Assembly (NCBI GenBank): GCA_048940645.1
Contig: JBHLOI010000016.1
Location: 1-64,000, forward strand
Length of the DNA stretch: 64,000 bases
Direction of reading: 5' to 3'
Origin: Promethearchaeota archaeon
Lineage (GTDB): Archaea; Asgardarchaeota; Lokiarchaeia; Sigyniarchaeales; SOKP01
In this document: positions 41,241 through 52,347 of the stretch, piece by piece
How positions within the stretch are numbered: position 1 is the stretch's first letter
How the letters are laid out: each line of letters opens with the position of its first letter
Program-made: the position numbers and the translations under genes
Notes under the pieces: generated by a model
Databases searched by the model: none
Told to the model about the DNA's origin: nothing
The model's input: the letters and a program-made list of their open reading frames with translations, nothing else

Positions 41241-41726
41241 TTATTCTTTAATATCAATATTTTTTATCAATTCTTCAAATTCTTTCTTTAAAAGAAAACC
41301 CTTATAGGATAAAGTTTCCTTAATTTCTTCTAATATATTGTCTAAATTTGAAAAACTTAATTTTTTAATTTGAGATTCTATCTGGTTGAATTTTTCCTTT
41401 AGCGTTTTATTTTCTAAATTAAAATTGGATACTTCATGTTCTTTTGATATAACGTTATTTCTTATTTCTTCAATCTCTTTATCAATAAAAGCTAATTTTA
41501 ATTTTGATTTTTCTAAAATAATTTCTAACTTTTTAATTTCTTCTTCTACATATCCTAATTTTGCCTTTATTTCTCTAGATTTGTTTCTATGTTCCCCCAA
41601 TGATGTTATTAATTCACTTATCAGTTGATTTTGTTGTTTGATTTCTATCTCTTTTTTGTTCAGTTCTTTCTCTAAATTGGTAATTATTCCATTAATATCC
41701 TCGGATTTAACAGGCCAATCGAACAT
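41241..41726 (-). CDS. Coiled-coil protein, paralog of 43379-43861
   Basis: MFDWP start, heptad-rich middle, KETLSYKGFLLKKEFE end; ATG 41726 gives 161 aa. Confidence 0.8.
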   Translation of the reverse strand: MFDWPVKSEDINGIITNLEKELNKKEIEIKQQNQLISELITSLGEHRNKSREIKAKLGYVEEEIKKLEIILEKSKLKLAFIDKEIEEIRNNVISKEHEVSNFNLENKTLKEKFNQIESQIKKLSFSNLDNILEEIKETLSYKGFLLKKEFEELIKNIDIKE

Positions 41727-41804
41727 TTGAATATGGTATTTAATATTTCTATTAAGAATTAGTATAAACAATCCTAAAAAAATTTAATCCTATATGTAAA
41801 AACT

Positions 41805-49356: not shown

Positions 49357-49506
49357 TGAATATCTACCTTTATTTAGATTTTTTTTGTGTTTTAATTATT
49401 TAATTAATCTTTTATATAAATTTAAAATTTTTTTATCTATAATTTTGAAAACAAGGCAACTATTTCAAAAGATATAATATTGAATTATTACCTTGATCAA
49501 AATTTA

Positions 49507-52347
49507 CTAAATACGACTCTTTAAAAATTCAATTTTTTTCTTCAAAATTCTTGATTTTTTAGATTTGTCTAGTCCTAAATTATTCAATATCTCCAATGAT
49601 TGAATGGTATATTTAAGTGAATTTGAATAATCATATGTTGCATAATATACTCCAGCAATATTATTAAATAAATCTGCTTTATATTCAAGATTATCCATTT
49701 CCTCCACTAACTCTAACGCATGTTCAAAATAATTCATAGATTCGTGAAAATTTTCTAATAAGTAATAGGCTTTTCCTATATTATTAAGTTGAACAGCTTT
49801 AAGTTCTAAATTATTTAATAACTCAGAAACTTGAAGTGCATCTCTGAAATTCTCTAAAGCTTTGAAATACTTTTTTTGATCATAATGTATATTTCCAATT
49901 TTATCGAGGAACCACACTTCTTCATCTAAATGCCCAATTTGTTCATTTAATTGATGGCCGATGTCTAACAATTTTAAAGCTTGAGTATAGTTTTCTAATT
50001 TATAATAACAAGTTCCTAAATTATTAAGACTAACAGTTCTGCTGTTCAAATCATTTATTTGGTTCAAAATTCTGTATGATAACTCAAAAAATTTCAAGGC
50101 TTCAGTAAAATCTTCACATTTAAAATAGATAACTGCAATATTGTTAAGGTAAACCGCTTTATTGTCTAGATCTCCTAATTTTTCGGCAATTTCTATTGCT
50201 TCCTTATATTTTTCGAGCGCACTTTTATATTCTTCCTCATTTTCGTAGATTTCTAAAATCTCATTAATAAAGATTATCTGTCCTGGTAAATCGTTTAATT
50301 CTTTACAATATTCAAAACCTTTTTCAAAAAGAAACATTGATTCATCAAACTTTTTTTGAGTTTTATAGATTTCTCCGATTTCATACAAATAAAGGCATTT
50401 TTTTTCTATATTATCTATATCATTGGAAAGGTTAAGTGCTTGGTTATACCACTTTAAAGCCTCAAAAAGGTTGTTTTGCATTTTATATAGTTTGCCAATA
50501 TTACTAATACATAAGATTTCTTTCTCAATATCATTTAAACTTGTTGATAGATTATAAGCTTCTTTAAATTTCTCTAAAGCTTCTATATGATTTCTCTGAT
50601 CAAGATAAAGCTTACCTATATTATTTAGAACAGAGATTTTTAGTAAATTATCATTTTCTCGATCTGAAATGATTAAAATTTCTTCAAATTTTTTTAAAGC
50701 TTTGCCATATTTTTTTTGTTTTAAATATACACTGCCAATATTATCTAAAGCTGAAGTTTTTATTGTATAATCATCGAGTTTAGTATTAAAGTTTAATATC
50801 TCATTAAATTTCTCCAATGCTTTAGAAAATTCCTTTCGACTAACATAAAGCTCTCCTATTTCATTTAATATTTCTATTTTATTTCTAATATTGCCAAGTT
50901 TAATTTCTATTAGAAGAGCCTCCTCAAATCTTTCTAATGATTTTCCAAAAATTTGTTGTTTCTTATATAAAGTTCCTAGCTTGAATAAAATATCAACAAC
51001 TTCCCTTAAATTTTTCAACTCTTTATAAATTTCTAACTCTTTTTCATAGAATTTCACTGCTTCTGGGTATTTCTTTAGTTTTTCTTGGATTGCTCCCATT
51101 TTAGAAAGAAAGAGTACTTCTTTAGATAAATCATTGACATTTTTTATTAACTGAACTCCCTTTGAATAATATTCAATCGCTTTTTCAAAAATACCACGCT
51201 TTTCCCAAATTGAGCCTATATCAAAAAAAATATCGATTTTCTGAGTGTCTTTAATAGACTCCGTAGCAATATCTAAAAGCTCCTCTGCACATCTTAATGC
51301 CTCATCAAGCATATTATAACTAATAAATATCTTAAAAGAAATTACTTTTTTCATGATATAATCTGGTGAATCAAGGTTGAATCGCATCCAATTTTTTATA
51401 TCTGCAGAAAATCCATTTAGTTCTATACCTTGTTCAAGAGTGAAAAAATTTTTAAAAAATTTAGAAGTATTTACATTAATTCTGTAAATTTTCGTAGTTT
51501 GATGGTAATTTTTAATCTCTAATAGAATTTTATCAATTCTATCAGGTTCTATGGTAAGATCATTTGAATCTTTATCTATTTCGTATACTTCACTTTCATG
51601 TTCATCTAATATATGGTTTATCCAGAATATATTATTTAAACTATCAACATCTCTTAACATTGGGAGAATATCAAAATCATTTTTCCCTGAATAACCTATA
51701 ATAATCAACGAACTTCCATTTAATATGTTATTTAAAAGTGGTTGTTTATATGGTTCCAATTGGAAAAGTGATATTCTTTTTTCATTTTCACCTATTTTTT
51801 GAATAGTATTAATTAAGGATGTAGTTGTATTTTCGTCAGTGATAATATTTTTAATAGAACCATGTAATTTGTATAGAAAGAGCTTTTTTTTTTTTAATAC
51901 TTCATCATAATTCTCATTTTGTTTATAGTCTTTTTCTGTAATGATTGGCACTATTTTCTTTTTAGAGACATGAGATTTCAATAATGATTCTTCAATTAAA
52001 CAATCAAAGTTCGTAGTCATGACATATTGACCATTCTTAATCATATCAGCAAGAAAAAAATGCAAATAATTGGGTTTTATATCAATTCCATATATATTGT
52101 ATATTTTGAGTATAGGATCGAAATGAGTACAAATAATTTTAAGCAAAGTTTCAAGAGTCAGTTCTGGAATGCTTAATATTTTTTGAATTTCAAAATCCTC
52201 ACACAGAAATTTAACAATATACTGAATCATTTCCTGTCCGTCAGGTAAATAAGATGGTGCTTCAACAGAACAACCAGCACCAGCAAGAAATACTACTTTT
52301 TCATCATTACCTAACAAATGAGTAATTTTATGGATAACTTCATTCAT
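49507..52347 (-). CDS. SIR2-like domain fused to a long TPR array
   Basis: FLAGAGCS, TTNFD, KLHGS, IIGYSG.NDFDI; ~40-aa repeats with NNIG/NNLG. Confidence 0.9.
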   Translation of the reverse strand: MNEVIHKITHLLGNDEKVVFLAGAGCSVEAPSYLPDGQEMIQYIVKFLCEDFEIQKILSIPELTLETLLKIICTHFDPILKIYNIYGIDIKPNYLHFFLADMIKNGQYVMTTNFDCLIEESLLKSHVSKKKIVPIITEKDYKQNENYDEVLKKKKLFLYKLHGSIKNIITDENTTTSLINTIQKIGENEKRISLFQLEPYKQPLLNNILNGSSLIIIGYSGKNDFDILPMLRDVDSLNNIFWINHILDEHESEVYEIDKDSNDLTIEPDRIDKILLEIKNYHQTTKIYRINVNTSKFFKNFFTLEQGIELNGFSADIKNWMRFNLDSPDYIMKKVISFKIFISYNMLDEALRCAEELLDIATESIKDTQKIDIFFDIGSIWEKRGIFEKAIEYYSKGVQLIKNVNDLSKEVLFLSKMGAIQEKLKKYPEAVKFYEKELEIYKELKNLREVVDILFKLGTLYKKQQIFGKSLERFEEALLIEIKLGNIRNKIEILNEIGELYVSRKEFSKALEKFNEILNFNTKLDDYTIKTSALDNIGSVYLKQKKYGKALKKFEEILIISDRENDNLLKISVLNNIGKLYLDQRNHIEALEKFKEAYNLSTSLNDIEKEILCISNIGKLYKMQNNLFEALKWYNQALNLSNDIDNIEKKCLYLYEIGEIYKTQKKFDESMFLFEKGFEYCKELNDLPGQIIFINEILEIYENEEEYKSALEKYKEAIEIAEKLGDLDNKAVYLNNIAVIYFKCEDFTEALKFFELSYRILNQINDLNSRTVSLNNLGTCYYKLENYTQALKLLDIGHQLNEQIGHLDEEVWFLDKIGNIHYDQKKYFKALENFRDALQVSELLNNLELKAVQLNNIGKAYYLLENFHESMNYFEHALELVEEMDNLEYKADLFNNIAGVYYATYDYSNSLKYTIQSLEILNNLGLDKSKKSRILKKKIEFLKSRI

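Follow-up and report, generated by a model that had tools for sequence, protein, structure and literature searches.

A ten-gene accessory block of Asgard archaea combining a membrane protein–longin pair with SIR2-TPR, tandem OsmC, and AAA+ ATPase genes

Ten consecutive minus-strand genes at positions 41241–52347 of a 64,000-nucleotide stretch of Promethearchaeota archaeon DNA (contig JBHLOI010000016.1, positions 1 to 64,000; hereafter, the window) encode a protein that joins a SIR2 domain to tetratricopeptide repeats (TPRs), a small protein with three transmembrane helices (hereafter, the TM protein), two longins, an AAA+ ATPase, four coiled-coil proteins, and a tandem OsmC-like protein. The locus raises the question of whether these genes form one system and, if so, of what kind. 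An earlier note, made from the sequence alone, had proposed a membrane-linked signalling or defence module, and all ten open reading frames (ORFs) that it named were confirmed from the ORF list and translations. The window is AT-rich (GC content ~25–33%), and NCBI relatives of its proteins bear Asgard names (e.g., Promethearchaeota, Hodarchaeota, and Hermodarchaeota). Domain calls were based on Pfam, NCBIfam, and PADLOC scans of the ten proteins.

One accessory block, present or absent as a whole

The genes are transcribed in the order SIR2_2-TPR, TM protein, longin A, ATPase, 284-aa protein, 289-aa protein, longin B, cc160, tandem OsmC, and cc176 (Table 1). All ten occur in this order in three genomes of the same genus (G013, G020, and G010) and in a metagenome contig (L104), and part of the block is present in G022, up to the end of the contig. 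An acyl-CoA dehydrogenase (ACAD) gene directly follows cc176 in G013, G020, and L104. A genome of a second genus (G237, contig L010) also carries all ten genes in the same order, with proteins that are 49–84% identical (ATPase: 49%), at a site with different flanks: CDC48 on one side and a Pyr_redox/dimerisation-domain oxidoreductase gene on the other.

Three equally related genomes without the ATPase (G018, G016, and G007) provide the corresponding empty site. Their dehydrogenase gene lies directly beside etfB; therefore, the block is an insertion or deletion within a natural cluster of ACAD and electron transfer flavoprotein (ETF) genes, and this indel begins and ends exactly with the outermost genes of the ten. 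In genus g22, G207 is not collinear past the Pyr_redox gene, and no clean empty site was found. Members of the ATPase family turned up in 9 of 400 Asgard genomes searched, all from one archaeal family (7 of 42 in the genus of the window and 2 of 54 in the second genus), and orthologues of the block-type SIR2-TPR protein (at least 52% identity) were restricted to the same nine block-bearing genomes, so that the two strictly co-occur; all other SIR2-TPR copies are at most 47% identical. The ten genes thus constitute one accessory, co-inherited block that is present or absent as a whole. The proposal of a module would have failed if orthologues were scattered without synteny in other Asgard genomes; instead, the genes keep their order in two genera with different flanks, come and go as a block, and recur elsewhere as rearranged subsets.

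These data also bear on the alternative that the locus is not one system at all, and that unrelated units (TM protein and longin; ATPase and coiled coils; OsmC and short coiled coils; SIR2-TPR) meet in a variable region and are co-inherited by kinship. The 100–200 bp spacers suggest several transcription units, the TM–longin pair stands alone in many genomes, and multi-gene synteny is confined to one family, all of which would suit such an assembly. It does not account for the conserved order of all ten genes at another chromosomal location in a second genus, for the gain or loss of the block in one piece, for the relinking of TM, longin, OsmC, and SIR2-TPR genes in another order in three contexts, or for the strict co-occurrence of block-type SIR2-TPR and ATPase. 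We consider it the least probable of the explanations weighed here.

Purifying selection was detected on all ten genes, with ratios of nonsynonymous to synonymous divergence (dN/dS) from 0.03 (longin A) to 0.26; longin A, the TM protein, and the C-terminal winged helix of the ATPase fall between 0.03 and 0.15. The TPR part of the SIR2-TPR protein has a dN/dS similar to that of the SIR2 domain, showing that the repeat array does not evolve faster. When G020 was compared with G010 (L008 vs. L009), synonymous divergence (dS) was 0.23–0.56 for the ten block genes and 0.89–1.21 for four flanking genes, and no such gap separated block and flanks between G000 and G013. The first comparison hints that the block may have been exchanged laterally between lineages by recombination in conserved flanks; it is a hint only, because Nei-Gojobori dS estimates are noisy in AT-rich genes. 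IMG/VR viral contigs contained no relatives of the TM protein, nor of the ATPase beyond its P-loop.

A membrane protein–longin pair at the core of nested forms

Comparison with other loci revealed that the ten-gene block is the largest member of a nested family of modules. A six-gene form on ENA contig L012 (ATPase 41% identical) consists of the TM, longin A, ATPase, coiled-coil pair, and longin B genes. In the five-gene form, one strand encodes a longin B-like protein, the TM protein, longin A, and tandem OsmC, and the gene for a 709-aa SIR2-TPR protein converges on them. We inspected this form in three loci (L088, L089, and L090) from second-genus genomes without the ATPase, each with a different set of flanks; judged by coordinates, TM, tandem OsmC, and SIR2 (~709–725 aa) genes lie together in 12 g22 genomes, and TM and OsmC genes in two more. 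The ten-gene form thus adds the ATPase, the coiled-coil/winged-helix pair, and two short coiled coils to the five-gene form. The TM–longin pair is thus the conserved seed, to which longin B, OsmC, and SIR2-TPR are linked in two gene orders, and the ATPase and coiled coils are an add-on. The ATPase can also occur alone, because contig L011 encodes a 32% identical ATPase without any partner from the block.

Around the various forms lie genes for metabolism or signalling (ACAD/ETF, Pyr_redox, Hdr-like, PAS histidine kinases, MCP, and MutL). The five-gene form in L088 adjoins the same Pyr_redox gene as the ten-gene block in G237, and a Pyr_redox gene of the dihydrolipoamide-dehydrogenase type adjoins the module in G235 and G237. 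Signalling genes (PAS histidine kinases, a response regulator, and an MCP) surround both a TM–longin–longin trio (L041, 4982–6405) and the five-gene forms of L089 and L090; among these loci, a 1699-aa multi-PAS kinase is encoded directly beside SIR2-TPR.

The TM and longin A genes form a conserved, Asgard-wide pair. The TM family, which has no Pfam match, was found in 73 of the 400 genomes and 25 of 85 genera, almost always with one match per genome, and its alignment contains 31 invariant columns, many within the helices. Based on hydropathy, charge counts, and the positive-inside rule, the basic first loop and basic C-terminal tail are predicted to be cytoplasmic. The gene adjoins a longin-profile gene, in varying orientation, in 8 of 12 distant Asgard loci inspected, and the same adjacency is present in L040, L041, L055, and L056. 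In two more distant Asgard families (L094, 5082–6134; L097, 5283–6377), the TM gene adjoins a gene for a 350–364-aa longin-profile protein without a Pfam match, possibly a longer longin partner with several domains.

Longin A has no Pfam match of its own and was assigned as a paralogue of longin B (22–26% identity) and by its fold. The AlphaFold2 (AF2) model (pLDDT 83) shows the longin order of strands and helices, b-b-a-b-b-b-a-a, as a five-stranded sheet packed between a single helix and, on the opposite face, a pair of helices (strands 7–12, 17–20, 53–56, 59–66, and 71–78; helices 29–47, 83–100, and 113–130), and Foldseek matched it with probability 1.0 to MglB, LAMTOR (LAMTOR2/3), Bet5/Trs23, Mon1, and AP sigma. 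Longin B, present in the ten-, six-, and five-gene forms, matches Fuz_longin_1 (E = 1.1e-5) with 26.1 bits, exactly the cut-off of 26.1, and its relatives reach 30.9 bits; the Pfam longin matches point to the Mon1/Fuzzy LD1 group. The stand-alone longin family comprises 1030 cluster representatives at E <= 1e-3. A complex prediction for the TM protein and longin A, with alignments as input, scored 0.18 against a mark of 0.32 and is evidence neither way.

The data support the inference of the earlier note that the module is membrane-linked and uses longins without a neighbouring small GTPase; no GTPase gene lies in or beside its ten-, six-, or five-gene forms. Longins are eukaryote-signature proteins of Asgard archaea, and their genes rarely neighbour those of GTPases (PMC10933270). 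A membrane-anchored longin heterodimer could nonetheless act as an exchange factor (GEF), activating protein (GAP), or docking platform for an unlinked small GTPase in membrane identity or polarity (a proto-Ragulator, Mon1-Ccz1-like, or SR-like device), with SIR2-TPR, OsmC, and ATPase as lineage-specific regulators or passengers. The fold matches to MglB, LAMTOR, TRAPP, and Mon1, the Mon1/Fuzzy LD1 profile, and the presence of two paralogous longins, which suits a heterodimer, are consistent with this idea. In addition, a gene for a RagA/Arf/SR-beta-like GTPase of 181 aa converges at 14 bp on the longin–TM pair of a different Asgard family (L092 in G168, 5637–7012). The missing neighbour says little in itself, because small GTPase genes of the cultured Lokiarchaeon MK-D1 generally lie outside operons of longin/roadblock genes (PMC10933270). 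Even so, L092 is the only one of the 12 distant TM loci with a GTPase alongside, the recurrent linkage to SIR2-TPR and OsmC in two gene orders is left unexplained, and a family present in 73 of 400 genomes would be oddly patchy for core trafficking. We regard such a GTPase-platform role as unlikely.

The eukaryotic platforms themselves (Ragulator with LAMTOR1 and LAMTOR2/3, SR-beta/SRX of SR-alpha, and Mon1-Ccz1) resemble the locus in combining a small membrane-bound protein with paired longin-fold proteins. The locus differs in that its anchor belongs to a three-helix family rather than being a lipidated peptide or GTPase, no GTPase is linked, and binding between the TM protein and longins is putative. 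A structural survey of Asgard GTPase regulators modelled a longin and named no partners (PMC10933270). Our locus supplies candidates, namely a conserved small membrane protein and, in one family, a set of enzymes (SIR2-TPR, tandem OsmC, and AAA+ ATPase), so that the partners and role of stand-alone Asgard longins become directly approachable. We found no paper that joins longin, OsmC, and archaea, nor one that ties Asgard SIR2-TPR proteins to longins; as far as we can tell, the gene combination and its nested structure are undescribed.

SIR2, OsmC, and ATPase components and the function of the module

The SIR2-TPR protein matches SIR2_2 (PF13289; E = 8e-11) and TPR_12 (E = 1e-64) in Pfam and Aga_SIR2 in PADLOC (E = 1.9e-9), the latter over the SIR2 domain alone (residues 91–256). 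Residues G23-A24-G25-C26-S27, T111/N113/D115, and H162-G163, which place it in the SIR2 superfamily, are invariant in the ten- and five-gene forms, and the motifs GAGCS, TTNFD, HG, and GYSG are invariant across seven orthologues and variants. The domain is of the SIR2_2 type and lacks the Zn-binding Cys residues. Profile searches against the PDB returned weak matches only (E = 0.09–0.3), the nearest being SPARSA SIR2, ThsA, and FAM118B; PPR matches from a single-sequence PDB search were discarded as spurious.

The SIR2 N-domain family is present in 114 of the 135 genomes of the archaeal family, with up to 14 matches per genome. A paralogue of 1352 aa in the same genome as the window (L103, 2302–6360, contig C54) is 47% identical in the SIR2 domain and has more TPRs; an NTPase between SIR2 and TPRs was found neither in it nor in the 946-aa protein. 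Because ORFs of ~1350–1390 aa bear a SIR2 match in most genomes of the window's genus (all 41 have at least one SIR2 match), the SIR2-TPR architecture extends beyond accessory loci. It has expanded in these archaea and is tied to partners not of the defence type, which bears on the relation of eukaryotic SIR2/NTPase/TPR immune proteins (SAMD9 and FAM118) to prokaryotic forms. The SIR2-TPR gene of G022 (L006, G022:C92, 2755–5575) reads in two frames with a switch near residue 242; the cause is either an assembly error or a frameshift that may have inactivated this copy.

The tandem OsmC protein matches Pfam OsmC in two stretches (E = 5.6e-25, 88 bits) and NCBIfam OsmC_like_Se (NF041052; E = 5e-29, 101 bits vs. 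a cut-off of 95), and in the five-gene form, too, its gene is a neighbour of those for the TM protein, longin, and SIR2-TPR. Both Cys positions are retained in domain 1, in agreement with the OsmC fold and two conserved Cys that define OsmC/Ohr peroxiredoxins. Compared to OsmC/Ohr thiol peroxidases, the protein differs as a single-chain tandem with a degenerate domain 2 (Asn at the first Cys position) and an additional C-F-C-Y-Y-C cluster; its activity is predicted.

The ATPase contains an ORC-CDC6-like domain (PF24389; E = 1.8e-10, 40.7 bits vs. a cut-off of 27) and intact Walker motifs, i.e., it is an AAA+ protein of the ORC/Cdc6 type. Residues G72, G75, G77, K78, and T79 of Walker A and D267 and E271 of Walker B do not vary among 13 sequences with identities as low as 35%. 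The AF2 model (pLDDT 85) is closest to BrxC (Z 12.8, 301 residues aligned, rmsd 4.2, ~10% sequence identity), followed by ORC/Cdc6 subunits (Z ~12) and the archaeal AAA+ ATPases 2qen and 2fna. The last 100 residues match the winged helices of Rio2-N, MarR, and TubR (Z 9–11) and are the most conserved part of the protein. This family is small, with 24 clusters among 5.8 billion proteins. Two distant PF24389 ATPases, 23–25% identical to that of the block, lie in other settings: one between genes for a D12 Dam-type methylase and the endonuclease DpnII, which are followed by a second methylase gene (L106, 2771–7327), and one beside a PLD-like nuclease on a high-GC contig (L108, 1329–4082). The wider ATPase family looks defence-associated.

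The earlier description of this protein as STAND-like was loose. It is a P-loop ATPase of the ORC/Cdc6/BrxC-like AAA+ kind and departs from the STAND arrangement, in which a single chain carries an N-terminal effector, the NTPase, and a C-terminal repeat sensor: it has neither repeats nor an effector domain. The nSTAND_NTPase5 profile scored 19 bits against a cut-off of 34, and CED-4, NLRC4, and Avs3 appeared only among the lower fold matches.

The 284-aa gene adjoins the ATPase gene in every block and in L012. Its product and the 289-aa protein share the same architecture, and their genes are linked by an ATGA overlap (translational coupling). Profile comparison of the coiled-coil/winged-helix family with the ATPase gave no match. 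Matches of the coiled coils to JetC, LmuB, SMC, and Rad50 are compositional, and no ATPase heads are present. Of the internal paralogue pairs claimed for the locus, the two longins hold, as do the two coiled coils with DWP and KGFL motifs (cc160 and cc176; 37% identity, E = 2e-21); the similarity of the 284-aa and 289-aa proteins is marginal (E = 8e-4, inside the coiled coil), and the winged-helix matches of their tails are weak (MarR-type; 289-aa tail, residues 228–272, E = 0.035; PDB 3nrv, E = 0.017). We found cc160 in the ten-gene form only; an apparent cc160–OsmC fusion in L010 is produced by a scaffold gap of X residues.

An ORC/Cdc6-like fold ending in a MarR/TubR/Rio2-type winged helix, with winged-helix-like tails on both coiled-coil proteins and a SIR2 domain among the parts, could describe a DNA-associated system for chromatin silencing or replicon segregation, in which the ATPase and coiled-coil pair bind DNA and SIR2 acts as a deacetylase. 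The parts list resembles the yeast silencing proteins Sir2, Sir3 (Orc1-derived), and Sir4 (coiled coil). This likeness is a lead only: homology exists only at the level of domain class, and the membrane, longin, and OsmC parts have no yeast counterpart. The coiled-coil proteins have only weak winged-helix matches, the five-gene form exists without ATPase and coiled coils, the SIR2_2-type domain is not that of a classical Zn-containing sirtuin deacetylase, and a DNA system has no place for a membrane protein or OsmC. A DNA-associated role is therefore very unlikely. A SNARE/NSF/SNAP-like reading (longin, coiled coil, TM, AAA+, and a 'SNAP' Pfam match) was rejected because the SNAP match reflects TPR cross-matching (also in the 1352-aa paralogue), no SNARE model matches, and the ATPase is ORC-like rather than NSF-like.

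Comparison with known systems showed partial likeness only. PADLOC found no known defence system among the ten proteins (its matches were the SIR2 domain, TPRs, and compositional coiled coils), and Pfam and PADLOC found no TIR, SLOG, Argonaute, PglZ, or nuclease. Like Avs5-type STAND proteins and SAMD9/9L, the locus combines a TPR array and a Zn-less SIR2 with a P-loop ATPase from the ORC/STAND neighbourhood. In those systems all are in one chain, whereas here SIR2 is fused straight to the TPRs and the ATPase is a separate gene without repeats; PADLOC has no Avs match, and seven genes (TM, longins, OsmC, and coiled coils) are without counterpart. Thoeris ThsA, DSR1/2, and SIR2-APAZ/pAgo (SPARSA) share a SIR2_2-type domain with catalytic Asn and His, but SLOG, TIR, Argonaute, APAZ, and DSR C-terminal domains are all missing from the locus. 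Thoeris would need a TIR-type ThsB with a SIR2-SLOG or SLOG/Macro ThsA, and neither a TIR nor a SLOG match was obtained; for SPARSA, only the SIR2 domain matches Aga_SIR2, with no Argonaute or APAZ match in the locus. The likeness to BREX consists of a block ATPase above the PF24389 cut-off with BrxC-like fold. PADLOC found no Brx or Pgl match among the ten proteins (PglZ, PglX, BrxA, BrxB, and BrxL are lacking), and the C-terminal winged helix and partner genes differ.

How, then, might the module work? We tentatively favour a longin platform, anchored in the membrane, through which a membrane or redox cue reaches the NAD chemistry of SIR2. The TM protein, its conserved basic loop and tail exposed to the cytoplasm, would be embedded in the membrane and hold a longin A/longin B dimer, as membrane anchors hold eukaryotic longin/roadblock platforms. 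This platform would pass the cue to the SIR2-TPR protein, which may be docked by its TPR array, and detection or removal of organic peroxide would fall to the OsmC-type thiol peroxidase domain. The Zn-less SIR2 site would then consume NAD+, or ADP-ribosylate or deacylate a target. The ATPase and coiled-coil pair of the ten-gene form may add a switch or scaffold driven by ATP, with the conserved C-terminal winged helix as a possible contact to nucleic acid.

The close, main rival is antiviral NAD depletion, i.e., a defence of the abortive-infection type against viruses or mobile elements. The TPRs, or the ATPase with the coiled coils, would sense an invading protein or DNA, SIR2 would deplete NAD+, and the TM–longin pair would place the system at the membrane of viral entry. 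Its case is built on a SIR2_2 domain that lacks Zn-binding Cys but keeps its catalytic motifs intact, the Aga_SIR2 match and solved relatives named above, BrxC as the nearest fold of the ATPase, distant PF24389 members inside a Dam–ATPase–DpnII–methylase operon and beside a PLD nuclease, an ATPase in only 9 of 400 genomes, a block that is a precise indel in a metabolic cluster beside a cassette hot spot, and a block apparently younger than its flanks in G020 vs. G010. These points are met by the absence of any known system in PADLOC and of relatives on IMG/VR viral contigs, by flanks (ACAD/ETF, Pyr_redox, kinases, and MutL) that place no examined locus within a defence island, by the high conservation of longin A, TM protein, and ATPase winged helix, by a TPR sensor that is not diversifying, by OsmC, longin, and TM families without a known defence role, and by a TM–longin pair that is common without any effector. 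Antiviral defence is only slightly less probable than the longin platform, and the defence label given in the earlier note is a possibility rather than a finding: neighbours are metabolic or signalling genes, the TPRs evolve no faster than SIR2, and hints of an origin in conflict come from the ATPase relatives (restriction-modification operon and PLD nuclease) and from patchiness.

Several observations weigh against the longin platform coupled to SIR2. The best-known role of Zn-less SIR2_2 domains is that of NADase effectors in antiviral systems, and the nearest PADLOC and PDB matches are the pAgo-associated SIR2 and ThsA. Distant ATPase relatives lie in a restriction-modification operon and beside a PLD nuclease, and patchy spread, a clean indel, and low block dS in one genome pair are typical of defence islands. 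Multi-gene synteny beyond the TM–longin pair comes entirely from one archaeal family, so that this support is inflated by shared descent. The redox link is inferred only from OsmC family membership and neighbouring genes. The longin platform keeps a narrow lead because of strong constraint, non-diversifying TPRs, a constant peroxidase-type member, genus-wide SIR2 ORFs of ~1350–1390 aa, and an effector-free seed pair. We therefore narrowly prefer an accessory stress-type signalling module to a classical antiviral system.

A bolder extension, which we think unlikely, is that the TM–longin pair is an unrecognised, Asgard-wide membrane anchor for longin platforms, a counterpart of Ragulator or SR, that is wired here to a SIR2 NADase, an OsmC peroxidase, and a BrxC/ORC-like ATPase as an immune- or stress-type membrane signalosome. 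If so, it would be the first prokaryotic conflict or stress system in which a eukaryote-signature longin platform replaces the GTPase switch.

Layout of the locus and its surroundings

Coordinates of the block and adjacent features are given in Table 1. The likely start of the ATPase is the ATG at 48417, and cc176 probably starts at the ATG at 41726 (product of 161 aa), because homology begins at MFDWP.

Table 1 Genes and repeats of the ten-gene block and its surroundings (positions in the window)
Feature	Position	Strand	Remarks
SIR2_2-TPR, 946 aa	49507..52347	-	SIR2 domain ~1-330, then ~15 TPRs
3-TM membrane protein, 111 aa	49021..49356	-	Three hydrophobic helices
Longin A, 132 aa	48606..49004	-	AF2 fold, Foldseek; 16 bp downstream of TM gene
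AAA+ ATPase, ORC/Cdc6/BrxC-like, 671-674 aa	46402..48426	-	PF24389; long helical insert; C-terminal winged helix
Coiled-coil protein with winged-helix-like tail, 284 aa	45386..46240	-	Coiled-coil cross-matches only; stop overlaps start of next gene
Coiled-coil protein with winged-helix-like tail, 289 aa	44520..45389	-	ATGA overlap; weak MarR-type match
Longin B, 130 aa	44027..44419	-	PF19036 Fuz_longin_1 at cut-off; paralogue of longin A
33-nt repeat unit	43872..43963		Longin B/cc160 spacer
cc160, short coiled coil	43379..43861	-	N-terminal DWP, C-terminal KGFL motifs; cc176 paralogue
Tandem OsmC-like protein, 455 aa	41805..43172	-	Pfam OsmC, NCBIfam OsmC_like_Se
cc176, short coiled coil, ORF 176 aa	41241..41771	-	cc160 paralogue; last gene of block
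42-nt direct repeat	39003, 40016, 41101		Three copies
Zn-ribbon cassette	40109..41032	-	Single gene
GNAT cassette	39169..40008	+	Single gene
Acyl-CoA dehydrogenase gene	37731..38897

In the window, the etfB/etfA genes lie on the other flank of the block from the dehydrogenase gene. The earlier note placed metabolic genes on both sides, and this requires correction on the dehydrogenase side, where two single-gene cassettes, GNAT and Zn-ribbon (39169–41032), intervene in the interval 38898–41240. The 42-nt direct repeat brackets each cassette. Both cassettes are absent from G013, G020, and L104, in which the block abuts the dehydrogenase gene directly. No direct or inverted repeats flanking the ten-gene block itself were found, and the cassette repeat is the sole convincing family. 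Within the block, the spacer between longin B and cc160 contains two exact copies and one 79% copy of a 33-nt unit, which may be a regulatory or promoter-region repeat.

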